Shown piece by piece: positions 5,159-64,000 of a stretch of DNA of 64,000 nucleotides. The DNA is from an uncultured Flavobacteriaceae bacterium (lineage in GTDB: Bacteria > Bacteroidota > Bacteroidia > Flavobacteriales > Flavobacteriaceae). Position 1 is the stretch's first letter. Each line of letters opens with the position of its first letter. The notes under the pieces are model-generated. The model ran no database searches, had not been told where the DNA came from, and saw nothing but the letters and a program-made list of their open reading frames with translations. Made by a program: the position numbers and the translations under genes. The stretch is from positions 729,246 to 793,245 of the forward strand of contig CANNAN010000001.1 of NCBI GenBank assembly GCA_947502635.1, given 5' to 3'.

Positions 5159-5839
5159 TTATTTATTTAATATATCTAAAATTTTTGAAACCCCAACTGT
5201 AGCAGGTTCAGCAATAACTGTTAAATTTTTTTTACTGGCAATATTAGGTTTAGGATCTATAAAGTAAGTTGGTGTGTTTTGTGGTACATAATTCATCAAG
5301 CCTGCGGCAGGATACACCTGCATAGATGTACCTATAATGATTAAAATATCTGCTGTTTCACAAATAGAAATGGCTTTTTCAATCATAGGAACATCCTCTC
5401 CAAACCAAACAATATGAGGTCGTAATTGAGCGCCTTTTTTACAAGTATCACCCAAGACTAAATCTGTTTGCCATTCTTGAATATCGGTTTCATTAAAAGT
5501 ACTTCTTACTTTAAGTAATTCACCATGTAAATGAATTACGTTGCTGCTTCCTGCACGTTCGTGTAAATCGTCAACATTTTGCGTAACAATGGTGACTTTA
5601 AAGTTATTTTCAAGTTCAGCTAAATCAAAATGAGCGGAATTAGGTTCCACTTCAAAAAGTTGTTTGCGGCGTTGGTTGTAAAAATCTAAAACCAATGCAG
5701 GATTTCTCTTAAAACCTTCGGGTGTTGCTACTTCCATAACATCGTGGCCTTCCCACAAGCCATCTGCATCTCTAAAGGTTTTAATACCACTTTCGGCACT
5801 CATTCCAGCACCAGTAAGAACAACAAGGTGTTTTTTCAT
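5159..5839 (-). CDS. cobB: NAD-dependent protein deacylase, Sir2/CobB family
   Basis: GAGMSAESGIKTFR, TQNVDDLHERAG, HLHG, RPHIVWFGE, GTSMQVYPAA. Start placed at ATG 5839 (MKKHLVVLTG) rather than 5890. Confidence 0.92.
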   Translation of the reverse strand: MKKHLVVLTGAGMSAESGIKTFRDADGLWEGHDVMEVATPEGFKRNPALVLDFYNQRRKQLFEVEPNSAHFDLAELENNFKVTIVTQNVDDLHERAGSSNVIHLHGELLKVRSTFNETDIQEWQTDLVLGDTCKKGAQLRPHIVWFGEDVPMIEKAISICETADILIIIGTSMQVYPAAGLMNYVPQNTPTYFIDPKPNIASKKNLTVIAEPATVGVSKILDILNK

Positions 5840-5922
5840 ATGGTAAAAATAGCTATTATTTGTTATTCCTACTAAAGTAAAAATCCACACTTTTTTATTA
5901 AATTCGATGTTTAACTGTAAAC

Positions 5923-6579
5923 ATGATAGATTTAGAGCTTTTAGACCATTTAGAGACTTATTTAACAGAAAACCGTAAAGAACGTTTTGATAATGTTTTA
6001 TCTCAGCGCACCAAATATTATACAGTAGCTACAGAAGATGTTTATCAACTACATAATACAAGTGCTGTGATAAGAAGTTGTGATGTGTTTGGTATACAAG
6101 AGGTAAACATTGTTGAAGAGCAAAACTCAAAAGATATTGATAGAGAAATTGCTATGGGTGCCCAAAAATGGGTGGATTTAAATAGATATGATACCGTTGT
6201 TGATTGTATTTCAGATTTAAAGCAAAAAGGGTACCAAATTGTAGCTACTACACCCCATGCAAATGATTGTGATTTACATGAATTTGATATCACTAAAAAG
6301 TCCTGTTTTTTCTTTGGAAGAGAGACCGAAGGATTATCTAAAGAAGTTTTAGATGCAGCAGATTGCTATTTAAAAATACCTATGGTTGGTTTTACAGAGA
6401 GTTTAAATATATCGGTTTCTGCAGCCATCATTTTACAATATGTTACTAGTAAGTTAAGGCAAACACCTATGAATTGGCAACTTACAGAGCAAGAGGTTAT
6501 AGAAAAACGTTTGGACTGGTGTAAAAAAACAATTAAAAGTTATGATGAGATTGTTGCTCGTTTTTATAATCAGCAATAA
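5923..6579 (+). CDS. trmH: TrmH/SpoU family tRNA Gm18 methyltransferase
   Basis: HNTSAVIRSCDVFG, FFFGRETEG, IPMVGFTESLNISVSAA. Confidence 0.85.
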   Translation: MIDLELLDHLETYLTENRKERFDNVLSQRTKYYTVATEDVYQLHNTSAVIRSCDVFGIQEVNIVEEQNSKDIDREIAMGAQKWVDLNRYDTVVDCISDLKQKGYQIVATTPHANDCDLHEFDITKKSCFFFGRETEGLSKEVLDAADCYLKIPMVGFTESLNISVSAAIILQYVTSKLRQTPMNWQLTEQEVIEKRLDWCKKTIKSYDEIVARFYNQQ

Positions 6580-6620
6580 TTTTTGTAATTTTAAAACCAT
6601 TAATTAAAAAACTGTTAATC

Positions 6621-7148
6621 ATGTATATAGCTTTTTATATAATCATTGCAATTATTGGTTTATTTGTTCTTTTAGCACTCATAGCTCCTAAAAAATATCA
6701 GGTAAACCGAAGTATTGTAATCAATAAACCACTTCCAGAAGTATTTCAATATTTAAAGCATATAAAAAACCAAGATAATTGGTCGCCTTGGAAAAAGAAA
6801 GACCCAGATATGAAGCAAGAATTTATTGGCCGTGACGGTGAAGTTGGATTTATAGCTAAATGGGATGGTAATAAAGACGTTGGTTTGGGAGAACAAGAAA
6901 TTACGAATATTGTTGATAATGATAGGGTAGAAGCTAGGTTACGATTCTTTAAACCTTGGAAATCTGAATCTGATGCCATTACAAGCGTTGAAGAAGTTGC
7001 GGGAGGAAATACAAAGGTGACTTGGGGTTTTTCTGGAGTTAATAAAGTGCCTGCCAATATTTTTATGATGTTTTATAATGTAGATAAACATGTAGGGAAA
7101 GATTTTGAAGAAGGTTTAGTAAGTTTAAAAGAAATTTTAGAAAATTAG
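6621..7148 (+). CDS. SRPBCC/START-fold protein with N-terminal TM anchor
   Basis: Hydrophobic N-terminus, VNRSIVINKP, WSPWKKKDP, VGKDFEEGL. Confidence 0.85.
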   Translation: MYIAFYIIIAIIGLFVLLALIAPKKYQVNRSIVINKPLPEVFQYLKHIKNQDNWSPWKKKDPDMKQEFIGRDGEVGFIAKWDGNKDVGLGEQEITNIVDNDRVEARLRFFKPWKSESDAITSVEEVAGGNTKVTWGFSGVNKVPANIFMMFYNVDKHVGKDFEEGLVSLKEILEN

Positions 7149-7153
7149 AAATT

Positions 7154-7531
7154 ATGGATACTAATATGGTAGGTTGGTTCGAGATTCCTGTGGTTGATAT
7201 GGATCGAGCCGTAGCATTTTACAATGAAGTATTTAAAATAGAAGTACAGGTACAAGATTTTGGTGGTACTTTAATGGGGTGGTTTCCATTTGAAGAAGGT
7301 AAGCCAGGAGCACCAGGTTCTCTAGTTAAAAATCAGGCTTATGAACCGAGTGATAAAAAAGGAAGCTTGGTGTATTTTAATTCTGAAGATGTTAATAACG
7401 AACTGAATAGAGCAGAAGGAGCTGGCGGACAAGTGGTGCAACCTAAAACACAAATTTCACCAGATATTGGATATATGGGGATTTTTATTGATAGTGAAGG
7501 TAATAGAATAGCATTACATTCCAGAGTATAA
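7154..7531 (+). CDS. VOC/glyoxalase family protein
   Basis: VGWFEIPVVDMDRAVAFY and FIDSEGNRIALHS. Confidence 0.9.
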   Translation: MDTNMVGWFEIPVVDMDRAVAFYNEVFKIEVQVQDFGGTLMGWFPFEEGKPGAPGSLVKNQAYEPSDKKGSLVYFNSEDVNNELNRAEGAGGQVVQPKTQISPDIGYMGIFIDSEGNRIALHSRV

Positions 7532-7549
7532 TTAAAGGAGTAAAAAAAG

Positions 7550-7582
7550 GTCATTCATAAGGAGGAACGACTGGAAGAATCT
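7550..7582 (+). repeat. REP-like element (GTCATTC...GAATCT family), diverged
   Basis: GTCATTCATAAGGAGGAACGACTGGAAGAATCT between convergent genes, with the same ends as the copies at 12326 and 34475. Confidence 0.5.
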
Positions 7583-7593
7583 AAGCATTATTT

Positions 7594-8370
7594 TTAAATT
7601 CTTTTGCTTCTCCCGCGACTTAGTAATTTATATTCTTCATAACACTCGCTTATAGCATCGAGTATTTGCAAATCGTTAGCAGTTTGTATAAAGCCTTTAG
7701 AGTAATTACATTGACTTACAATTTCATCTAAATCAACACGGTCTACTTGTAATAAAACTGTTAGCATTTCCCTATCAAAACGGGATGCCAATAAGTTTCT
7801 AATTTCATCATCTTCTTTCATCTTTTTTAGCTTTCGTAATTCGTTTGGTTTTTTACCAAACATACGATGTAAAAAATCGGCAGGATTAAAAATAGACCCA
7901 ATAATTTTAGTGATTGCACCTTTAGAGCCAGCTTCATAACCTGTACTAGGTAATCCAGAAATACTATAGCGGTAATTATTATTAATAGCAGGTAGTTGTT
8001 TTATATCAACTTCTAGATATCCAGTCAGTTTTAATTGGTTTACAACAACTTCTTCAAGAGCCAGAGCCAATTCTGTTAGTTCAATATTAGAACTTCCAAA
8101 CTTTAGCCAGTCGTTAGTAACTCTAACTTTTATAGATTTAAAGCCTAAATACGAAAAATGCAGCGTATCGTTAACTTTAGCAGAAATCTCAAACGCTCCT
8201 TTTTTATTAGTAGTTGTACCAATTACTTTATTAAGGTTAACAATATTAACGTTTTCAAGAGGCACATCATTTGATGAATTAATAACTACACCTAAAACTT
8301 TATCAGCCTCCTGCCCCATACACATGGCAGAAGTGAATAGAAAAGTAAAAAGAAGTAGGTAGTTTTTCAT
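7594..8370 (-). CDS. Carboxypeptidase-like regulatory domain protein (secreted)
   Basis: Signal peptide. GTTTNKKGAFEISAKVNDTLHFSYLGF and LEEVVV are typical of the Bacteroidetes CarbopepD_reg_2 domain. Confidence 0.8.
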   Translation of the reverse strand: MKNYLLLFTFLFTSAMCMGQEADKVLGVVINSSNDVPLENVNIVNLNKVIGTTTNKKGAFEISAKVNDTLHFSYLGFKSIKVRVTNDWLKFGSSNIELTELALALEEVVVNQLKLTGYLEVDIKQLPAINNNYRYSISGLPSTGYEAGSKGAITKIIGSIFNPADFLHRMFGKKPNELRKLKKMKEDDEIRNLLASRFDREMLTVLLQVDRVDLDEIVSQCNYSKGFIQTANDLQILDAISECYEEYKLLSRGRSKRI

Positions 8371-8768
8371 CTGTTATTGTTTTAGAGTCAGATTCAATTG
8401 CCATGACTCATTCCATCTGTTAAAATTCAATAGCTAAAATACTAAAGAAAACGGCAAAAATTGTAGTTAAGTTGTAATTTGACTAAAAATTAACAAAAAA
8501 GTTTAACTAAAACATAAACTTAAGGTTTTGTTGTGGGATTGACAATATTTTGAAAGTTTGATTTTAATTAGTTTTTGTACGATAATATTAACTCTTCAAA
8601 AGCGAGAAAACCGATATTTATGTTGTTATGAGCAATTATAATTCAGTAAAAAATAATTTTGACTGTAAGAATTTTATTTATATTTGAAATAATAGATAAT
8701 ATGGATGAATAGATTTCGTAGTGTCATGTTTGCAAGAAAAAATTAAGTTTATAGAATATTAAAACCAG

Positions 8769-9539
8769 ATGAAAGCAACCACAATAGATGAAGTCATAGA
8801 GAATTTAGAGCAAATAATTCAGCAGGCAATAAAAGAAGAAAGTACGCTTGGGTATTTTGCAGCTTTATATCAAAATGTAACTATAAATATAAAAGAGAAA
8901 TTAGGCACAAATTATTTCGATGATGATAAAAGGATGGAAGAATTGGATGTTATTTTTGCTAATCGATACTTAGCAGCCTATTCAGAATATAAAGAAAAAA
9001 AGAAGGTAACAAAGTCATGGGACATTGCTTTTAAATCATCGACAAATAATATGTTAATAGTGTTACAGCATTTATTACTAGGAATGAATGCTCATATAAA
9101 TTTGGACTTAGGTATAGCAGCATCTGAAATAACAAATGATAAAACTATAAAATCACTTGAATCAGATTTTAATAAAATAAATGAATTACTGTCAACGCTA
9201 GTAGATGAAGTTCAAAAAGATTTATCTGAAATATGGCCTACGTTCCTGAAAATTTTAAAATATCTAAAAAAGGTAGATGATTTTTTAATAAATTTTAGCA
9301 TGAAATTGGCTAGGGATAAAGCTTGGGAATTTGCAAACAGGTTAGTTAAAGAAGATGAGGAAAATAAGGAGCAATTAATCGAATTAAAAGATCTTGAAGT
9401 ATCGAAACTATCAGAAAAAATAGTAAACCCTGGTATTTTAGTAAAGATATTATTTATTATAATAAGAATAGGAGAACGAGGAAAGCCTTCAGACAAAATT
9501 AAGAAATTGGAAAAGCTAATTGAAAATAAAAGATTTTAA
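8769..9539 (+). CDS. DUF5995-like protein
   Basis: LGYFAALY, FANRYLAAY and QHLLLGMNAHINLDLG match my recollection of DUF5995. Confidence 0.75.
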   Translation: MKATTIDEVIENLEQIIQQAIKEESTLGYFAALYQNVTINIKEKLGTNYFDDDKRMEELDVIFANRYLAAYSEYKEKKKVTKSWDIAFKSSTNNMLIVLQHLLLGMNAHINLDLGIAASEITNDKTIKSLESDFNKINELLSTLVDEVQKDLSEIWPTFLKILKYLKKVDDFLINFSMKLARDKAWEFANRLVKEDEENKEQLIELKDLEVSKLSEKIVNPGILVKILFIIIRIGERGKPSDKIKKLEKLIENKRF

Positions 9540-55433: not shown

Positions 55434-58400
55434 ATGAGTGGAATCAAAAAGGGGAAAAATAAAATAAGAGTTTTTAATAAAAATCAATTAAACGCAATTA
55501 TTTTAAAACTGAATACATTAATTGCCTCTATACGGGACAGAGAAAAATTATTAGAGTTCATTTTCATTATACTTAAACATGAATTAGGGTTTGATAATGC
55601 TACAATACATCTTTGGGAAGATCAAGAAAAAAAACTTTCAGTATTCAGTCAAACAAAACCAAGCAAAAATTTAAAGGAGTCTTTCTCTATAAAGGGTACA
55701 CCCTATGAAAAATGCCATAATAATAGAAGAATAGAATTTCTAGATTTTTCAGCAAAAAACAATTTCTTTTTAAATACACCTGCTTCTAAGAGATTAAGCA
55801 AATTAAAATACGTAGAGGGTTTAATTATACCTCTCTTTTTCGAAGACAATAAAATTGGTATAATAGAATTGTTAAGTAGCAAAAAAGGACATTTAAAAAC
55901 CTTGGAATTAAAATTGTTAGAAGCTATTGGAGTACAAATGGCTATTACCATTTCCAATATTCTACTTCAAGAAGAAAATTTAGAAAAGAAAAAGGAAAAA
56001 GAAACTCTTTTGAAGGTTAGTCAAGCAATGACAACAATACAGAGAAGGGAAGACCTTTTTAGTTTTATAATGAATCAAATTCGCCCTGTTATAAATTTCC
56101 AAGATGCCGTTGCTGTAGAGGTTAATTCTTCTAAAACACATCACAAAACATTTTTAACCATATCTCCAAAATCTACACAAGAAAATCCAAGGTATCATAA
56201 AGTAGTAGGTCAATGGTTACCAATAGAAGGAGGTATTGTTTCATGGACGCTAAGCCAATCAAAAGATATATTCTTTTCAAGCACCGAGAAATTATTAAAA
56301 TTATTTCCAGAGAGTATAATTGCTAACTTAATGAAAGAAGAAGCATTAAATCATTCTTTAATATTAAAACTTTATTCAAGCAGAATTTTAAAAGGATTTA
56401 TAGTATTCCACTTTACCGAAAGACCTGAGTTTAGTATTGAAAAAATGAATGTTTTTAAGGGGCTTGCAAATCAAATATCAATGGCGTTACTTAATATTTT
56501 AACAAATGAAAATGCCTTGAGAAAAGAGAATGAAAAAGAAATCCTATTAAGTATTAGTAAAGCTATGGTCACCATTCGAGATAGAGATGAGCTTTTTAGT
56601 TTTATAATGAATCAAATTCGCCCAATTATTAACTTTCAAGATGCTGCAGTTGTAGAAATAAATAATCAAAAAACGCATCATCATCTATTTCTGACTATGT
56701 CACCAGAATCTACAAAAGAACATCCTATTTATAAAAAAGTGATTAGAAATTGGATACCTATAGAAGGTGATTTGATAGAATGGATGTTGGAACAAGAAGA
56801 TGATTTATTTGTAAGTCATATTGATGACTTACAAAATCTGTATCCTGAAAGCAGTATAGTAAAAACTATGAAAGAGATTTCTTTAAATCATTACTTAATA
56901 TTAAAACTCTATTCCAGTGGCGTTTTAAAAGGTTTAATCATATTTAGTTTTATTGATGAGCCTAAGATTGATTTACAAAGAACAAATTTCTTTAAAAATA
57001 TTGCCAATCAAGTATCAATGGCACTGGTTAACATTATAGCAAATGAAGATATTCTAAGAAGGCAGAAAGAAAAAGAAATCCTTTTAAATATCAGCGAACA
57101 TTTATCACAAGTACGGCAATGGAATGATTTATTTGATTCCGTTTTTATAAAGCTACAGTCTATATTTATGTTTGAAGAAGCTATAATTATATTACCAATT
57201 TCCAAGAGTATTAAAAAATATAAAATATTATCTAGAACTACCATAAATAAGAATAAAAACAAACCTTCAATAGAAATTTATAGTAATGAATTTACAAAAC
57301 CTTCTCATTTTAACATTCTTTATACCCTAAAAAAGCCTAAGCTCTTTTCCATTGAAGAATATGAGAAATTATCTCCAGAATTTATTGGTATTGATCTCAT
57401 GAAAAAAACTGGAGCAAATGCTACCTGGGTTCAACCATTACGAAATGCTAATAATGTTATAGGGATACTAGAGTTTTATTATAAATCTAATTTAGAAGCG
57501 AGTAACATAAATGTTTCGTTGTTTGAAAATGTGGTTAATCAACTCTCCGTAACAGTTTCTAATATTCTGGCTAACGATGATATATCTGAGCGCGAAAAAA
57601 TAAAAGTTTTGAGGGGGAAACTGGCATTGTCACTTACTTCTCAATCAAATTGGCCTTCTAGGTTTTTAGAGATTACTAATGCCTTAAAAAAAGTAGTCCC
57701 TTTTGAGTTAGTTACTTTTGTCCTTGATGCTGAAGGTGATTTTGATAAAGGTTATGCTTTTGAAAAAATAGGCTATGATGAATATAGACTGATAAGTGCT
57801 GACCAATTTTATAAACTTTCAGGAAAGACACTTCAAGAATTTAAAAATGAAAGATCTAAAACACCATATATAAAACCTGAAATATTTAATGACCAAGATT
57901 TTATTATTAAGACTAAGGTTGATTCTTTAAAGAAAGCTATCAGTAATATATTTCATGTAAAGTCCAATCTTAATATACCTCTTAAGTTAAACTTAAATGG
58001 TTTTTTTCAACTATCATTTTACAGTAAAAAGAAGGTTGCATACAATAATATGCATTTAAATCAAATGAATCTGTTAATTGAATCTATTGTTCACCCATTG
58101 GAAAAGGTTTTAGCATATGAACAAATTGAGCAATTAAACAGCCTCTTAAAACAAGAAAAAGATTATTTACAAGAAGAAATAAAATACAATTATAATTTTG
58201 AAGAAATTGTAGGTAATAGTGAAGGAATTAAGAAAGTCTTTTTAAAGGTAAGTCAAGTTGCTTATACAAATAGTACAGTATTAATCACAGGTGAAACAGG
58301 AACAGGAAAAGAACTTATAGCCAGAGCTATACACAATCTTTCTTCTCGTAAAAAGAAACCTCTGATAAAAATAAATTGTGCAGCATTACCTTCTCAATTA

Positions 58401-59156
58401 ATTGAATCTGAATTGTTTGGTCATGAAAAAGGTGCGTTTACAGGTGCTAATATACAACGTATTGGGAAATTTGAATTAGCGGATAATGGAAGTATCTTTT
58501 TGGATGAAATTGGTGAATTACCTATTGAAGTACAAGCAAAATTATTACGCGTTATTCAAGAAAAAGAATTTGAGCGTTTGGGAGGAAACAAAATTATTAA
58601 AACTGACGTACGCATAATTTCTGCAACAAACAGAAATCTAGAGGACGAAATTTCTAAAGGAAACTTTAGGTCAGACCTTTTTTTTAGATTAAATGTGTTT
58701 CCTATAGAGATACCTCCTCTACGAGAAAGACCAGAAGATATTGCTGCGTTGGCTATTTATTTTTTAAATAAAAGCTCTAAAAAAATTGGTAAAAAAATAA
58801 CGAGTATTTCAAGTAATTCATTAAAAAAATTGATGGGCTATGATTGGCCAGGAAATATTAGAGAATTAGAGCATGTTATAGAAAGATCAATACTCCTTAA
58901 CAAAGGATCTACCTTATCTATAAATCTAGAAAAGCGAAACATTGACAGAGATAATGAGAAGAAAACGGAAGGTCTTTTTCAAGTAAAAACATTTGAAAAA
59001 GCAGAGCGTGAATTAATACTTAAGACATTAAAGTTTTGTGGCGGAAAAGTTCGTGGTTCAGGAGGGGCAGCTGAATTGTTAGATATGAATCCTTCTACTT
59101 TAGATTCAAGAATAAAGAAACTGGAAATATCTAAAGTTCATATTTTTGAAAATTAA
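55434..59156 (+). CDS. Sigma-54-dependent activator (FhlA-like) with about five GAF domains, AAA+ and Fis HTH
   Basis: GETGTGKE, ESELFGHEKGAFTGA, FLDEIGE, FRSDLFFRL, WPGNIREL, GAAELLDMNPSTLDSRIKKL. Confidence 0.93.
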   Translation: MSGIKKGKNKIRVFNKNQLNAIILKLNTLIASIRDREKLLEFIFIILKHELGFDNATIHLWEDQEKKLSVFSQTKPSKNLKESFSIKGTPYEKCHNNRRIEFLDFSAKNNFFLNTPASKRLSKLKYVEGLIIPLFFEDNKIGIIELLSSKKGHLKTLELKLLEAIGVQMAITISNILLQEENLEKKKEKETLLKVSQAMTTIQRREDLFSFIMNQIRPVINFQDAVAVEVNSSKTHHKTFLTISPKSTQENPRYHKVVGQWLPIEGGIVSWTLSQSKDIFFSSTEKLLKLFPESIIANLMKEEALNHSLILKLYSSRILKGFIVFHFTERPEFSIEKMNVFKGLANQISMALLNILTNENALRKENEKEILLSISKAMVTIRDRDELFSFIMNQIRPIINFQDAAVVEINNQKTHHHLFLTMSPESTKEHPIYKKVIRNWIPIEGDLIEWMLEQEDDLFVSHIDDLQNLYPESSIVKTMKEISLNHYLILKLYSSGVLKGLIIFSFIDEPKIDLQRTNFFKNIANQVSMALVNIIANEDILRRQKEKEILLNISEHLSQVRQWNDLFDSVFIKLQSIFMFEEAIIILPISKSIKKYKILSRTTINKNKNKPSIEIYSNEFTKPSHFNILYTLKKPKLFSIEEYEKLSPEFIGIDLMKKTGANATWVQPLRNANNVIGILEFYYKSNLEASNINVSLFENVVNQLSVTVSNILANDDISEREKIKVLRGKLALSLTSQSNWPSRFLEITNALKKVVPFELVTFVLDAEGDFDKGYAFEKIGYDEYRLISADQFYKLSGKTLQEFKNERSKTPYIKPEIFNDQDFIIKTKVDSLKKAISNIFHVKSNLNIPLKLNLNGFFQLSFYSKKKVAYNNMHLNQMNLLIESIVHPLEKVLAYEQIEQLNSLLKQEKDYLQEEIKYNYNFEEIVGNSEGIKKVFLKVSQVAYTNSTVLITGETGTGKELIARAIHNLSSRKKKPLIKINCAALPSQLIESELFGHEKGAFTGANIQRIGKFELADNGSIFLDEIGELPIEVQAKLLRVIQEKEFERLGGNKIIKTDVRIISATNRNLEDEISKGNFRSDLFFRLNVFPIEIPPLRERPEDIAALAIYFLNKSSKKIGKKITSISSNSLKKLMGYDWPGNIRELEHVIERSILLNKGSTLSINLEKRNIDRDNEKKTEGLFQVKTFEKAERELILKTLKFCGGKVRGSGGAAELLDMNPSTLDSRIKKLEISKVHIFEN

Positions 59157-59574: not shown

Positions 59575-59721
59575 CTAAGATAATACATCTTTTATCTGCA
59601 TAAAGTTATTTGTAGTTACATGAGTATATATTTTTGTAATTTCAGTAGAGTTATGACCTAATAAATACTGAATGTAACGAGTATCTGTACTACTTTCTAA
59701 GAGATTTTCTGCAAAACAGCA
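59575..59721 (-). pseudogene. C-terminal remnant of a tyrosine recombinase (IntI/XerD-like)
   Basis: My translation CCFAENLLESSTDTRYIQYLLGHNSTEITKIYTHVTTNNFMQIKDVLS* matches RHSFATHLLExGxDLRYIQxLLGHxSxxTTxIYTHV. The HxxR box is lost and there is no start codon. Confidence 0.8.
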
Positions 59722-59873
59722 TACTTGATTAAAGAGGTATAAATAATTAGAAAAGGACGAATAATTACTGAAGATATCGTATAATTATTTCCCTGATATT
59801 AAACCATCCAGAAAAATGTTCAAGCATACATAAAGTGTTTCAGAAAAATTTAAATGTTCTCTTAAAAAAAGAA

Positions 59874-59931
59874 GGCTTGATTTCATCTTAATTATATTAA
59901 CCCTAAAATATAATTAAGACTATTTCAAGCC
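59874..59931 (-). terminator. Long intrinsic terminator ending the five-gene operon
   Basis: GGCTTGA..TCTTAATTATATT/AATATAATTAAGA..TCAAGCC, followed on the - strand by TTCTTTTTTT. Confidence 0.7.
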
Positions 59932-59952
59932 ATCACCAACATATATGTAATC

Positions 59953-61053
59953 CTAGAAATCTATATCATCCCCAGCTTTTACAGAAGCAAATTCGGTATT
60001 GTATTTTTCCATAAGCTCACCCATTTTTACAGCTAAACGCGTATCTGTAGCCATTTTTGGGGCCCAGTGCGCCCCTACAGAACTCCAATCGGTAACTGTA
60101 AGGCCATATTCTTGTAAAATAGAGGCAGCATCTTTACCTTGTGTAGCTCCCATATTTTGATGACACATAATTTTAATATATAGATCAAAATCTTCCAAAA
60201 CTCCTTGTAAGGCATTGTTGTTATTTGACACACTTGGCTCTGAATCCTGATTGGTTGCTGCGTTTGCAAACTTTCCGATATTTGAATTCATAAATGCATC
60301 TCCGTATACTTTAGAGATAGCAAAGGTGGTATCTTGAGACATTCTTGCGTTCCACTCAGCAGAGACTTCATCCCAAATTGGTTTTTCGGTTCCTACCACT
60401 TTTAAGACTTCTTCTAGACCCATACCTCCAGCGATTTTCGCATTAGCAGCTGCCCATGTTTCCATATCGATGCCCTTTATAGGATCTAATAATCCGCCTT
60501 CTGTTGCTGCTTCTATATGGGCATCCATTTGGGCATCCAACTTCGCTTTTTGTTCCTTTAATAAATTATCTGATTCATCATATGCTTTGGATTCTGATTC
60601 TTTTAATTTTACGCTAGCTGAATCTACATGATCCTTAATAGAAAATTGTTCATTATTTTTAAACCCATATTTTCGAGCTGCAGTTTCGAAATTCTCACTA
60701 TTCTGAATTTCTTTTAATATGTCTTTGACTTTTTCATATTCTTGCCCTAATTCCTTAGGAAATCCTAGTGTTAATAAACAAGCATTAAGCTTTCTTTCTG
60801 TACCATTAGAAAACTCATTTAAATCAACCCATCCCCCTGTAGTACCATCTGGATATTTTTTATAACATAACCAAGGTTCGATATAACCAATTTTATCTTG
60901 ATCTATATTTGGCCAGGTAAAATCTGCAGCCTCTTGAATGGTATAATCGTAATTTTCAGGACCAATACCATTTTTTGTTTGAATGCCTAAAGCAATTGCT
61001 TTTTGTCCTTGTTCTGTTTTGTCGTGATCTGAAAACTTATGTATTGTACTCAT
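59953..61053 (-). CDS. Uncharacterised protein with two C-terminal helical repeats (DUF6620-like)
   Basis: Repeats with the pattern L..(V/Y)G.....W..V.A.W...M..DT..A. The family name is recalled, not verified. Confidence 0.6.
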   Translation of the reverse strand: MSTIHKFSDHDKTEQGQKAIALGIQTKNGIGPENYDYTIQEAADFTWPNIDQDKIGYIEPWLCYKKYPDGTTGGWVDLNEFSNGTERKLNACLLTLGFPKELGQEYEKVKDILKEIQNSENFETAARKYGFKNNEQFSIKDHVDSASVKLKESESKAYDESDNLLKEQKAKLDAQMDAHIEAATEGGLLDPIKGIDMETWAAANAKIAGGMGLEEVLKVVGTEKPIWDEVSAEWNARMSQDTTFAISKVYGDAFMNSNIGKFANAATNQDSEPSVSNNNNALQGVLEDFDLYIKIMCHQNMGATQGKDAASILQEYGLTVTDWSSVGAHWAPKMATDTRLAVKMGELMEKYNTEFASVKAGDDIDF

Positions 61054-61084
61054 AGTATTAAATTTTAAGATTTATTTTTTGATT

Positions 61085-62113
61085 TTAAAATTGTGATAAT
61101 ATTTCTTGCTTTTTCTGCTTGTATTCTTGTTCATCTATAAACCCTGCCTCGAACATTTTTTTGAGTTTTTCGAGTTTTTGCATGGGGTCATCAGCTTGTG
61201 GAGTGGGGTTTTGCTGTTGAGGAGGCTGTTGTTGCTGGTTATTTTGGTTAGTCATCATGTTACCCATCATTTGTCCCATGCCTAATCCAGCTCCCATTTG
61301 CATACCAATATTACCTCCACCTTCGTTTTTAGCCATATTTTTAAGCGCTTCTAGTTGCTGGTAATCTTGATAGCTAACACCAAGTTCTTTCATTGCTTGA
61401 GCTTCTGCACTCATATCAGCAATTCTACCTATTCTTGTCTTGGTTTCTTCATCAAAACTGGTGCCTTCTATTCTAAAATCGAGTAATTCAAATCCAAGTT
61501 CATCAAAAATGGTGGTGCTTGATGTTTTAGAAAATGATGCAATTTCATTACGATGTTTATCAATTTCTGTATAACTAAAAGAAGCGTTGGCAAGAAAATC
61601 ACTAATAGGCTGGGTAATTCTAGATAATATGACTTTTTGTATTGCTTTTACAGGGTAATAATCGTCACCTGCTATGACATTGGAAAAGAAATCCACGGGT
61701 TTGGTAATTCTGAATGAAAAGTTACCAAAAGCACCCAATCCTACTGGAAAATTATAAACGGGATCTTTATACGTAATAGGAGAAGGCGTTCCCCAACGGA
61801 TATTTTGCATTTCTGCTTTTCTGTAAAAGAAGAGACCCACTTTATGAGCAGATTCAAACTTATACATAGCATTTTTAATTGTTGTCCAGAAAGGAATATT
61901 TCCAGTCTTAAGATCATAAAGACCTTCTTCTTCAAAAACACCTTCTACTTTACCTTCGTAAACAAAAAGGCATCCTTGTCCTGGATTAATGATAAGCTTA
62001 GAAGCATTTTTGATCTCATCACCGCTTTCGGTCCATTTTTCAAATAGTGTTTCGGGTTTTGGATCTTGCCATTCGATAACCGAACGGAATTGGTTGCTAA
62101 ATGAATTTGACAT
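61085..62113 (-). CDS. SPFH/Band-7 domain protein (YdjI-like) with Q-rich linker and SHOCT tail
   Basis: RSVIEW, IKNASKLII.PGQ, IRWGTPSPITYKDP, GAFGNFSFRI, GMQMGAGLGMG, KLEKLKKMFEAGFIDEQEYKQKKQEIL. Confidence 0.85.
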   Translation of the reverse strand: MSNSFSNQFRSVIEWQDPKPETLFEKWTESGDEIKNASKLIINPGQGCLFVYEGKVEGVFEEEGLYDLKTGNIPFWTTIKNAMYKFESAHKVGLFFYRKAEMQNIRWGTPSPITYKDPVYNFPVGLGAFGNFSFRITKPVDFFSNVIAGDDYYPVKAIQKVILSRITQPISDFLANASFSYTEIDKHRNEIASFSKTSSTTIFDELGFELLDFRIEGTSFDEETKTRIGRIADMSAEAQAMKELGVSYQDYQQLEALKNMAKNEGGGNIGMQMGAGLGMGQMMGNMMTNQNNQQQQPPQQQNPTPQADDPMQKLEKLKKMFEAGFIDEQEYKQKKQEILSQF

Positions 62114-62131
62114 TTTTCTTTTTTTGAGTTA

Positions 62132-62896
62132 TCAATAATTAGTTACTAAAGCTATTTTGGCTTCTAGGTCTTTTTCATATCGATCACCATAATCGGGTAT
62201 GATTTCAATTCTTTTCTTCAGGTAGGCTTCTACATATTTTCGGTATTGCATGGTCAAATGGTCTTTTCCATTTACTTCTCGATCTTCCAAATAGTTTTGA
62301 AACTTAAGCTGCTCATATTGAAGATAGTGTTCGAGAGCCGCTTCTTCTCCCAAGGCATGAATCGCAAAGTGTTCTACGTTTCGAGCCTTAGTTCCTGGTT
62401 CGAAAGTGTTTACAGTTTGACAATATTCACATGTGCTATAATAGGATCTGAAAAAATTATCTTTCACAGGAAGTTTTGCTTGACATTGTGTGCAGCAAAA
62501 GTCTTCAGATAATGTGTCTTTTACTTTCTTTACTAGCATTTTTGCTGCTTCAGCAAAAATTTTAACTTCGTATGATTTGAGTTTTTGTTCCAGATCAAAT
62601 TTGGTATAAAACCCTTTATTTCTTTCTTGAATAAATTGATTTGAATTAAATTCTATTCCTGCATCTTCAAAGGTTTCTCCAACCTTTTCATACCAAACGT
62701 CGTCTATTTTATAAATTAAATCACTGGCTTGAGAGTAAATTCCCTGCCATGCATTATTAAAAGTAGTCGTTTCAAAATCTGTAGCTTCGAATAATAAAGG
62801 TAACGCAGCTTCCGTTTTTTCTAATACTTCTTTAAATCGATCTTCAATTTTTTTAAGAAAACCGTTCCATCTATTTTGAGTTTCACTGAAAGACAT
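62132..62896 (-). CDS. Helical protein with internal zinc ribbon (CTQC...CEYC)
   Basis: CCTQCQA-x12-TCEYCQT. Start re-placed at ATG 62896 (MSFSETQ). Confidence 0.75.
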   Translation of the reverse strand: MSFSETQNRWNGFLKKIEDRFKEVLEKTEAALPLLFEATDFETTTFNNAWQGIYSQASDLIYKIDDVWYEKVGETFEDAGIEFNSNQFIQERNKGFYTKFDLEQKLKSYEVKIFAEAAKMLVKKVKDTLSEDFCCTQCQAKLPVKDNFFRSYYSTCEYCQTVNTFEPGTKARNVEHFAIHALGEEAALEHYLQYEQLKFQNYLEDREVNGKDHLTMQYRKYVEAYLKKRIEIIPDYGDRYEKDLEAKIALVTNY

Positions 62897-62916
62897 ATTT
62901 ATAAGGAAATTATATT

Positions 62917-63117
62917 TTAATAAAATTGGTTTCCGCAAAAATCACAATATTGAAGATCTGTGTCATCAGGCCTGGCTGCTCCACATCCATTACATTTCTT
63001 AGTTTCAAGACCAGCATTTGTTTCTTCATATTTTTTGGTAGAAGCGGTTGCATTGGCGAGAATATCATCCAAAATATTTTTTTCTTTTTTGGGCTTTTCG
63101 TTATTGTTTTCTTCCAT
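62917..63117 (-). CDS. Small zinc-ribbon protein (CNGC...CDFC)
   Basis: 66 aa, ATG start, CxxC-x12-CxxC, 20-nt gap to the next gene. Confidence 0.7.
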   Translation of the reverse strand: MEENNNEKPKKEKNILDDILANATASTKKYEETNAGLETKKCNGCGAARPDDTDLQYCDFCGNQFY

Positions 63118-63310
63118 ATTGAATAGTTGATTTTAAATAGGGTTATCCCTATACTTTCGAATTAAAAAATATAGGAATAACCATATGGTTTAATATTTTA
63201 ATTTATACTTTAACACTTTCTTTAAGTCTGCATTAATTTTAACCATTACTATACTTTTAAGTAATTGTTAAAGTAGCTTCACTGATTTAAAATCAATGAT
63301 CAAAAAAATA

Positions 63311-63730
63311 TTAATAAGGTAAAAATGATAGTGCAATCATAGCAGCACCTACTATTATTCCTATTACTCCTAGCTTACCTTGCTTAGGAGCTAGTTTTGC
63401 TCTTAATTGATTTGCTTTTTCTTGAGCAGCTTCGTTTTTAGATAAGACAAGCTTATTAATCATACCAAAGCCGAGCATAAAACCTAATATGGCTTCAACA
63501 ATATTTCCTGCTAGATAAGTAGACCATCGAATTGGGAACGTAGCCAGCCAGGATACTCCTAAAATTGATGTAATAATTCCCCATACTCCCCAGAAGCAGA
63601 ATATAAGTCCGATCCATCCTTGATAAGGCTCGATTTTTTCCAAAAGTTCTTTGGCGTTAGGTTTTTTAGATAACAATAATGATGGTACTGCTATAATACT
63701 TAATAGAATTAATGTGATTCCCCAGATCAT
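63311..63730 (-). CDS. Four-TM membrane protein
   Basis: 139 aa, PYQGWIG motif, helical cytoplasmic loop [16 protein letters not shown]. Confidence 0.8.
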
Positions 63731-64000
63731 AGTTTTTTAGTTTTAAAGGGTTAGTAATTATTTTTTAATAGAGCAACTTGTTTAAGTAAAAAAATATGTA
63801 TTAGCTTATTCATAATTGCAGTACAAAGATGCGACAGAAGTATTGGTAGGAAAACACCTTTTATAGTGAAAAAGAACACCCTGAAAACAGGGGGGGGGAG
63901 ATTTGCTATTACTTTAAATTATAAAAGTTGGTTAGAGGTTGGAGTGGTGTATGGAACCTATTCTCCATTGAATCTTCGCGTGTCTTAATTAATTGAAAGG

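Follow-up and report, generated by a model that had tools for sequence, protein, structure and literature searches.

A 64-kb stretch of DNA from an uncultured Flavobacteriaceae bacterium (hereafter the window) carries, close to its right end and on the minus strand, four genes that constitute a self-contained module inherited both vertically and horizontally. They encode a small zinc-ribbon protein of 66 codons (ZnR66, 63117..62917), a predicted helical-bundle protein with a CxxC...CxxC zinc knuckle (ZnH254, 62896..62132), a flotillin-like 342-amino-acid protein combining Band_7_1 and SHOCT domains (SPFH342, 62113..61085) and a 366-amino-acid protein that matches the Pfam family PF20325 (the DUF6620 protein, 61053..59953). 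By analogy with Bacillus subtilis, it most probably represents a YdjI/SamI-type SPFH scaffold with zinc-ribbon partners in a variant form that does not depend on PspA. A sequence-only reading of the same DNA had described five co-oriented genes, counting in an upstream gene for a four-segment membrane protein that was recognized from its open reading frame (ORF) call and hydropathy (TM139, 63730..63311, minus strand). This layout was found as claimed, with gaps of 193, 20, 18 and 31 nt in the order TM139 to DUF6620 and a strong terminator at the end. When compared with four orthologous loci, all five proteins showed ratios of nonsynonymous to synonymous substitution rates (dN/dS) of 0.03–0.16, indicating purifying selection (SPFH342, 0.03–0.05; ZnR66, 0.04–0.15; DUF6620, about 0.10), and therefore all five ORFs, even the 66 codons of ZnR66, are real genes.

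Four genes are conserved together in Bacteroidota and Myxococcota

The alignment of DUF6620 relatives was scanned over one genome per prokaryote species (185,579 species genomes), and 126 stretches were found and confirmed by tblastn. Eighty loci were retained for neighbour counts, in which ORFs were called and compared by phmmer and all-against-all clustering. The carriers among these loci were Aquimarina, Flavivirga, Allomuricauda, Fluviicola, Chitinophaga, Paraflavitalea, a Cytophagales metagenome-assembled genome (MAG), many Myxococcota and one Chlorobiales MAG. A ZnH254 homologue was adjacent to the DUF6620 gene at 74 of the 80 loci and a ZnR homologue at 59 of them. The SPFH-SHOCT gene was adjacent at 37 loci, comprising 32/32 from Bacteroidota and 5/48 from other groups, and a TM139 homologue at 25/80. 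The evolutionary core of the module is the triad of DUF6620, ZnR and ZnH; the YdjI/SamI-type SPFH gene is always present in cis in Bacteroidota and usually located elsewhere in the genome in Myxococcota. Co-occurrence in neighbourhoods of these two phyla, which the sequence-only reading required of all five genes, was observed for the four genes of the module and not for five including TM139.

The order of the genes was ZnR-ZnH-SPFH-DUF6620 in most Bacteroidota and in some Myxococcota, ZnR-ZnH-DUF6620-SPFH in Allomuricauda (L047), and DUF6620-ZnR(long)-ZnH-SPFH at L008 (from the congeneric genome G002), at L049 and at the P0211 locus. Since the order varies, we argue that the linkage of these genes is functional and not merely historical. 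The L008 locus (5605-9168) represents a divergent second subtype of the module and encodes DUF6620, a 203-amino-acid ZnR, a 284-amino-acid ZnH and an SPFH-SHOCT protein; its DUF6620 and ZnH proteins are only 24–30% identical to those of the window, while the SPFH protein is 56% identical. Outside Aquimarina, the flanks of the module were unrelated between genera.

The components were also detected as fusions within single metagenomic proteins. ZnH254 is joined to Band_7_1 and SHOCT in P0321, where the in-frame junction replaces the SPFH start, to the C-terminal domain of DUF6620 in P0420 and to the long form of ZnR in P0309. These fusions, together with the shuffled gene order, suggest that the proteins are physically associated around ZnH254 as the hub, and on this comparative evidence the four proteins probably assemble into one complex. 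The role of adaptors, previously proposed for the zinc-ribbon proteins, is made plausible by the same fusions of ZnH254 to ZnR, SPFH-SHOCT and DUF6620.

The two zinc-ribbon proteins represent families without a name

The alignment of homologues backs the ATG start of ZnH254 at 62896 but gives no support to a longer reading from a TTG at 62938. The AlphaFold (AF2) model of the protein (predicted local distance difference test score (pLDDT) 93.7; predicted template modelling score (pTM) 0.87) predicts an elongated bundle of six long helices and a zinc knuckle, the latter at residues 132-167 with its CxxC...CxxC motif at 135-159. Four cysteines, W10, W68 and the E166 and P167 that follow the ribbon were invariant in the homologue alignment. 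No structure in PDB or BFVD matched the fold at E <= 0.001; in the structure searches with this model and that of the DUF6620 protein, the top sub-threshold matches were generic helical bundles (such as syntaxin/Sso2, ClyA and designed proteins), and profile searches against PDB sequences gave nothing significant. The ZnH254 family comprises 448 clusters among 1.84 billion representatives.

ZnR66 contains the motif DILANA..S..KY followed by C-x2-CGAxR-x5-8-C-x-[FY]-CG, and the motif of its family reads [IL][LF]ANA and then C-x2-CGAxR...C-x-[FY]-CG. Its homologues occur in two lengths, 66–100 or 165–218 amino acids, with the longer form in the other module subtype. Both zinc-ribbon proteins bear CxxC...CxxC motifs, and the helix-plus-ribbon segment of ZnR66 aligned with that of ZnH254 (hhalign probability 93.8%, E = 1.7e-7), from which the two ribbons are judged to be paralogous. 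TM139, ZnR66 and ZnH254 were without a family in Pfam, NCBIfam, PADLOC and PHROGs, and the search of all five proteins against PHROGs resulted in a match of the SHOCT tail alone. The ZnH254 and ZnR66 types are two protein families without a name. Together with a literature search that found no paper on DUF6620, the absence of ZnH254 and ZnR66 from Pfam upholds the earlier description of the cluster as undescribed. The earlier remark that no enzyme motif is present was also borne out, since no enzyme domain was detected in any of the five proteins in Pfam, NCBIfam or PADLOC.

SPFH342 is a soluble Band_7_1-SHOCT protein

SPFH342 matched the Pfam model Band_7_1 (PF13421) with 125.2 bits (cut-off 24, E = 3.7e-36) over model positions 6-209 of 211, and the match was reproduced by a genome-wide search. 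This domain is followed by a linker rich in Gly, Met and Gln and by a C-terminal SHOCT domain at residues 313-339 (PF09851, 28.7 bits, cut-off 27, E = 1e-6). The C-terminus is a SHOCT domain without a Cys motif, and no YdjI-like C-terminal zinc ribbon is present. The protein is soluble by hydropathy, with a highest 19-residue Kyte-Doolittle mean of 0.78 and no segment as high as 1.6; the scan gave about four hydrophobic segments for TM139 and zero for each of the other four proteins. Homologues of SPFH342 fall into at least 1973 clusters. Close SPFH-SHOCT homologues at other loci adjoin different zinc-ribbon proteins (Zn_ribbon_TFIIB, Tim44-DZR). A further SPFH plus zinc-motif pairing was observed in Chitinophaga pinensis (L042:10498-13871), where the module has a further SPFH-SHOCT gene at a distance of 4 kb, followed by a gene for a 366-amino-acid protein with a short Cys motif; an OmpA-family gene is located nearby.

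The DUF6620 protein has a variable head and a near-invariant tail

The DUF6620 protein matched PF20325 with 45.1 bits (gathering threshold 27) over model positions 264-450 of 450 only, that is, over the C-terminal 187 residues. Of nine relatives scanned with the same model, seven matched only within positions 247-450 and two did not match. From the N-terminus, the protein consists of an alpha/beta domain that is variable, a long helix, two tandem copies of a helical unit of about 55 amino acids (residues 203-255 versus 299-356; hhalign probability 92%, E = 5e-7) and a disordered tail. The N-terminal two-thirds depart from the Pfam model and also differ between the two subtypes that we found. 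The long ZnR form has an N-terminal extension, which was considered as the missing N-domain of the type-2 DUF6620 protein; no similarity was found, and the idea was rejected. In a metagenomic relative (P0050) the DUF6620 C-terminal domain is preceded, at the N-terminus of the same protein, by a SMI1_KNR4/SUKH domain, which suggests that the head of this family may be exchangeable. The AF2 model had a pLDDT of 78, with the tail predicted to be disordered, and gave no PDB fold match at E <= 0.001. The literature search returned no described function for the family.

The window protein ends in ...GDDIDF (59953-59976), and a D-I-x-F-COOH tail was present in about 180 of 187 DUF6620 relatives, with the pattern [G/D]-x-D-I-x-F-COOH. 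The single-stranded DNA-binding protein (SSB) of the same genome (C2:408906-409220) ends similarly, in ...NDDLPF. This likeness would fit a DNA or nucleoid role, in which the tail mimics the SSB tip and recruits or titrates SSB-interacting enzymes while the zinc ribbons bind nucleic acid, as zinc ribbons often do (PMC3581485 and general knowledge). We hold this role to be very improbable. Docking through acidic-aromatic C-terminal tips is widespread, and the likeness spans just four or five residues; neither among the domains nor among the neighbours was anything related to DNA found (OB fold, nuclease, helicase or other), and SPFH proteins are membrane scaffolds.

In two Myxococcota, genes for FHA-domain sigma-54 activators were observed directly upstream of solo DUF6620 genes (L070:5919-7631 and L072:4175-5944). 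A TM139-like gene is divergent, and a Ser/Thr kinase gene lies downstream in L070.

The module occupies different genomic contexts

The block at 59867-63926 (about 4 kb) was the only DNA common to the window and to the corresponding loci of genomes G005 and G011. The flanks in both are made up of ordinary genes, namely TetR, KAS, GntR and MFS genes in G005 and ankyrin, SSF and SusE-like genes in G011. The block is portable, as it occurs in three contexts in three congeneric genomes, and the earlier suggestion of mobility is supported to that extent. The module was present in 4 of 41 genomes (its own and 3 of 40 relatives). The integrase relic reported next to it was recovered at 59578-59769 as a match to the C-terminus of PF00589 (E = 2.8e-8). 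In this genome the module sits at the margin of a region peculiar to the strain: only from about 64017 (L005), shortly ahead of a conserved ABC-transporter gene, is there synteny with congeners, and the 64-kb window showed no match to the 20 kb upstream of that gene in the three congeners examined. The right part of the window therefore belongs to a large strain-specific region. No att-like direct repeats were found around the 4-kb block. Recent transfer was not indicated by composition, the G+C content of the module being 0.348 against a genome coding mean of 0.331 (standard deviation 0.028). A gene for a 1240-amino-acid GAF-rich sigma-54 activator (55434-59156) was considered as a regulator of the module and rejected, as it is not conserved beside the module at other loci; this activator had no orthologue in 11 congeneric genomes.

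The block includes the intrinsic terminator of the module (59864..59931, minus strand), a long bulged hairpin followed by UUCUUUUUUU, and the block around it is conserved with G005 and G011. The hairpin (59931-59875, with the 3' arm and T-run at 59881-59864) has a free energy (dG) of -26.4 kcal/mol (z = -5.6). It was missed by a simple hairpin scan because the stem is long and bulged. An Rfam search gave only sub-threshold chance matches, on this hairpin.

An anti-phage or conflict system, in which the SPFH protein would hold a sensor (the DUF6620 head) and infection would trigger membrane damage or growth arrest, agrees with the patchy spread of the module (4/41 genomes and 126 stretches in the 185,579 species genomes), with the three contexts of the block and its location here at the margin of strain-specific DNA with an integrase relic beside it, and with the SUKH domain at the N-terminus of P0050. 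The SUKH fold is common in immunity proteins. We nevertheless consider such a system improbable, and the anti-phage element of the sequence-only reading found no support. None of the five proteins matched a family of PADLOC-DB v2 at E <= 0.1, and no nuclease, NADase, pore or other effector domain was found in them. Among 101 flanking proteins from 13 Bacteroidota loci, no defence family was enriched (at most 3 matches per model), and the matches to defence models were few, scattered and generic (MotB, methyltransferase, ATPase), with no signal of a defence island. DUF6620 had no match in phage and plasmid collections. The G+C content is ordinary for the genome, and selection on the proteins is uniform and strongly purifying with no signal of diversification.

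TM139 belongs to a separate unit

The five genes may be interpreted as one operon, and in that case TM139 could be a dedicated membrane anchor of the SPFH complex, like YdjG/YdjH. TM139 is co-oriented with the module, it lies upstream on the same strand in most Aquimarina loci, and none of the core proteins possesses a membrane segment. Upstream of TM139, the region 63722..63926 (minus strand) shares 78–81% identity with the sequence that immediately precedes ZnR66 in G005 and G011. It includes the sequence CATCTTTG at 63831-63824, which resembles a -7 box of Bacteroidota, and at 63892-63879 a small hairpin with a T-run. A search for sigma-54 promoters and TAnnTTTG boxes in the 193-nt gap and upstream of TM139 found only the CATCTTTG box. 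That this promoter region travels with the module in three congeners is one point in favour of co-transcription; TM139 shares the promoter region with the module and may be co-transcribed with it.

The comparison of loci nevertheless makes TM139 an unlikely anchor, although some chance of it remains. In other Aquimarina loci TM139 is located 1.3–1.9 kb upstream of ZnR66, with two or three genes between them: Zn_ribbon_15, sometimes SIMPL/DUF541, and a LipL32-like lipoprotein. In the window, a relic of the 3' end of the LipL32-like gene was detected at 63183..63252 (minus strand) by local alignment to L010, L012, L024 and L033, with scores of 61–124 versus a shuffle maximum of 34–37. Next to it, about 25 nt upstream of the ZnR66 start, is a hairpin with an 18-bp stem (63141..63182, minus strand; dG -21.3 kcal/mol, z = -5.4). 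The conservation of this hairpin extends over the Aquimarina loci, but it has decayed in the two relatives with a direct fusion of the TM139 promoter to ZnR66. This strong hairpin between TM139 and ZnR66 could be the terminator of a former upstream gene, an attenuator or an operator. The presence of the relic and of the conserved hairpin in the 193-nt gap shows that a deletion made TM139 adjoin the module, and this deletion took out the Zn_ribbon_15, SIMPL and LipL32 genes. A larger deletion occurred in G005 and in Flavivirga algicola (G011), where TM139 was lost beside the module; the residue consists of the first TM139 codons and their upstream region fused to the hairpin region, and the TM139 copies are located elsewhere in these genomes.

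TM139 homologues were found in 12 of 41 genomes (its own and 40 relatives), 7 of which are without DUF6620, and in these DUF6620-free relatives they are 73–79% identical. TM139 adjoins a LipL32-like gene at 4 of 5 loci examined, one of the four being truncated. No TM139 was present in Bacteroidota loci beyond Aquimarina and its close relatives. Three Myxococcota loci (L070, L072 and L078) do have a TM139-like gene no more than 2 kb away from DUF6620, which would favour an anchor; these loci, however, are mutually related and without ZnR, ZnH and SPFH genes. By this distribution TM139 belongs to a separate TM139-LipL32 unit and is not a conserved component of the module. Its membership in a five-gene operon, as described in the sequence-only reading, was not sustained, given that it pairs with a LipL32-like gene and has been lost beside the module in two close relatives. 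A second, pseudogenised copy of TM139 was observed in the same genome (C4:77140-77509), where two matching pieces together carry seven in-frame stops.

A candidate SPFH-gated complex

We propose that the four proteins form a single cytoplasmic complex. Like other SPFH proteins, SPFH342 would assemble into an oligomeric ring or cage beneath the inner membrane, and ZnH254 would be the hub that binds the scaffold, the paralogous small zinc-ribbon protein and DUF6620. The DUF6620 protein may be a client or sensor subunit with a lineage-variable N-terminal head, and its invariant acidic-aromatic D-I-x-F tip would dock into a partner. The scaffold would sequester or gate the triad, in analogy to SamI restraining SamH in B. 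subtilis, and the complex would work without PspA. An envelope or membrane role is our best guess, by analogy, and it is in keeping with the envelope genes (LipL32-like, SIMPL) that lie upstream in Aquimarina. The independence from PspA proposed in the sequence-only reading is supported by a search with PF04012, which had no match in the 99.98%-complete genome and matched 9 of 14 control genomes.

Several observations weigh against this proposal. Most Myxococcota have the order DUF6620-ZnR-ZnH without an adjoining SPFH gene, and although a Band_7_1 gene was found elsewhere in 6 of 6 tested Myxococcota genomes with such a triad, the argument for a partner in trans carries little weight, as Band_7_1 genes may be present in large Myxococcota genomes in any case. 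Each of the fusions is one metagenomic protein and could reflect a sequencing error or the loss of a stop codon. The assumed association with the membrane derives from the SPFH family in general, and SPFH342 may form a soluble cage instead. Neither a stress-related regulator nor a sigma factor nor a PspA-like effector was found linked to the module, and there is no clear promoter 3' of the strong hairpin that separates TM139 from ZnR66. Taken as a whole, our proposal of one SPFH-gated, PspA-independent complex with a membrane- or envelope-related role stands in our judgement at about equal chances of being right and wrong.

With a small chance of being correct, the triad of DUF6620, ZnR and ZnH could be a self-sufficient cytoplasmic machine that is gated by SPFH and whose output passes through the SSB-like D-I-x-F tip recruiting other enzymes of the cell. 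If so, it would be a new SPFH-controlled signalling or surveillance system and not a Psp variant, common to Bacteroidota and Myxococcota and built from two orphan folds.

Comparison with known SPFH systems

The module offers a small four-gene case for asking about the role of an SPFH scaffold and the docking of zinc-ribbon proteins. It also gives the uncharacterised DUF6620 family its first genomic context and, in ZnH254, a high-confidence model without a match among solved structures. YdjI-type SPFH-SHOCT proteins are abundant among bacteria but, to our knowledge, understood only in B. subtilis, together with PspA.

HflK/C-FtsH, QmcA-YbbJ (NfeD) and the flotillins possess their own transmembrane or hairpin anchors and protease or NfeD partners. 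The module shares the SPFH fold with them, and by analogy SPFH342 may likewise form ring or cage oligomers that enclose or regulate clients; unlike them, it has no anchor of its own, no protease and no NfeD protein. The architecture Band_7_1 plus SHOCT was described in 2013 as the commonest SHOCT architecture (Eberhardt et al., PMC3581485). That description covers the same architecture as SPFH342 but as a single protein only, with no DUF6620, ZnH or ZnR partners and no function.

The closest comparison is with the PspA-YdjGHI (SamGHI) system of B. subtilis, an envelope-stress system marked by induction under such stress (sigma-W or alkaline shock). In it the zinc-ribbon membrane protein YdjG and the TPM protein YdjH recruit the soluble SPFH protein YdjI/SamI (PMC8581546, PMC13713150, PMC11237479). 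SamI in turn recruits PspA and restrains SamH (PMC8581546, PMC13713150, PMC11237479), the brake model being taken from PMC13713150. YdjI works with the zinc-ribbon protein YdjG (PMC8581546, PMC11237479); proteins of the YdjG type combine two zinc ribbons with an NTF2-like domain and a transmembrane segment, and those of the YdjH type contain a TPM domain (PMC11237479). The likeness drawn in the sequence-only reading stood as far as the SPFH protein and the zinc ribbons are concerned: SPFH342 belongs to the Band_7_1 family, lacks a membrane anchor of its own and is encoded with zinc-ribbon partners, and in both systems the presumed task of the SPFH protein is to scaffold or restrain its partners below the membrane. 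It did not extend to YdjG (NTF2-TM) and YdjH (TPM), which have no counterparts here. There is no TPM or NTF2-like domain in the five proteins, and ZnR66 and ZnH254 are without transmembrane segments. In contrast to YdjI, SPFH342 ends in SHOCT and the zinc ribbons are placed on separate proteins. The module lacks PspA in both the operon and the genome, and its partners are two soluble proteins of unnamed families together with DUF6620. It is found in Bacteroidota and Myxococcota, whereas PspA-YdjGHI is found in Bacillota; the same scaffold is tied here to a different, fully soluble set of partners in a PspA-free genome.

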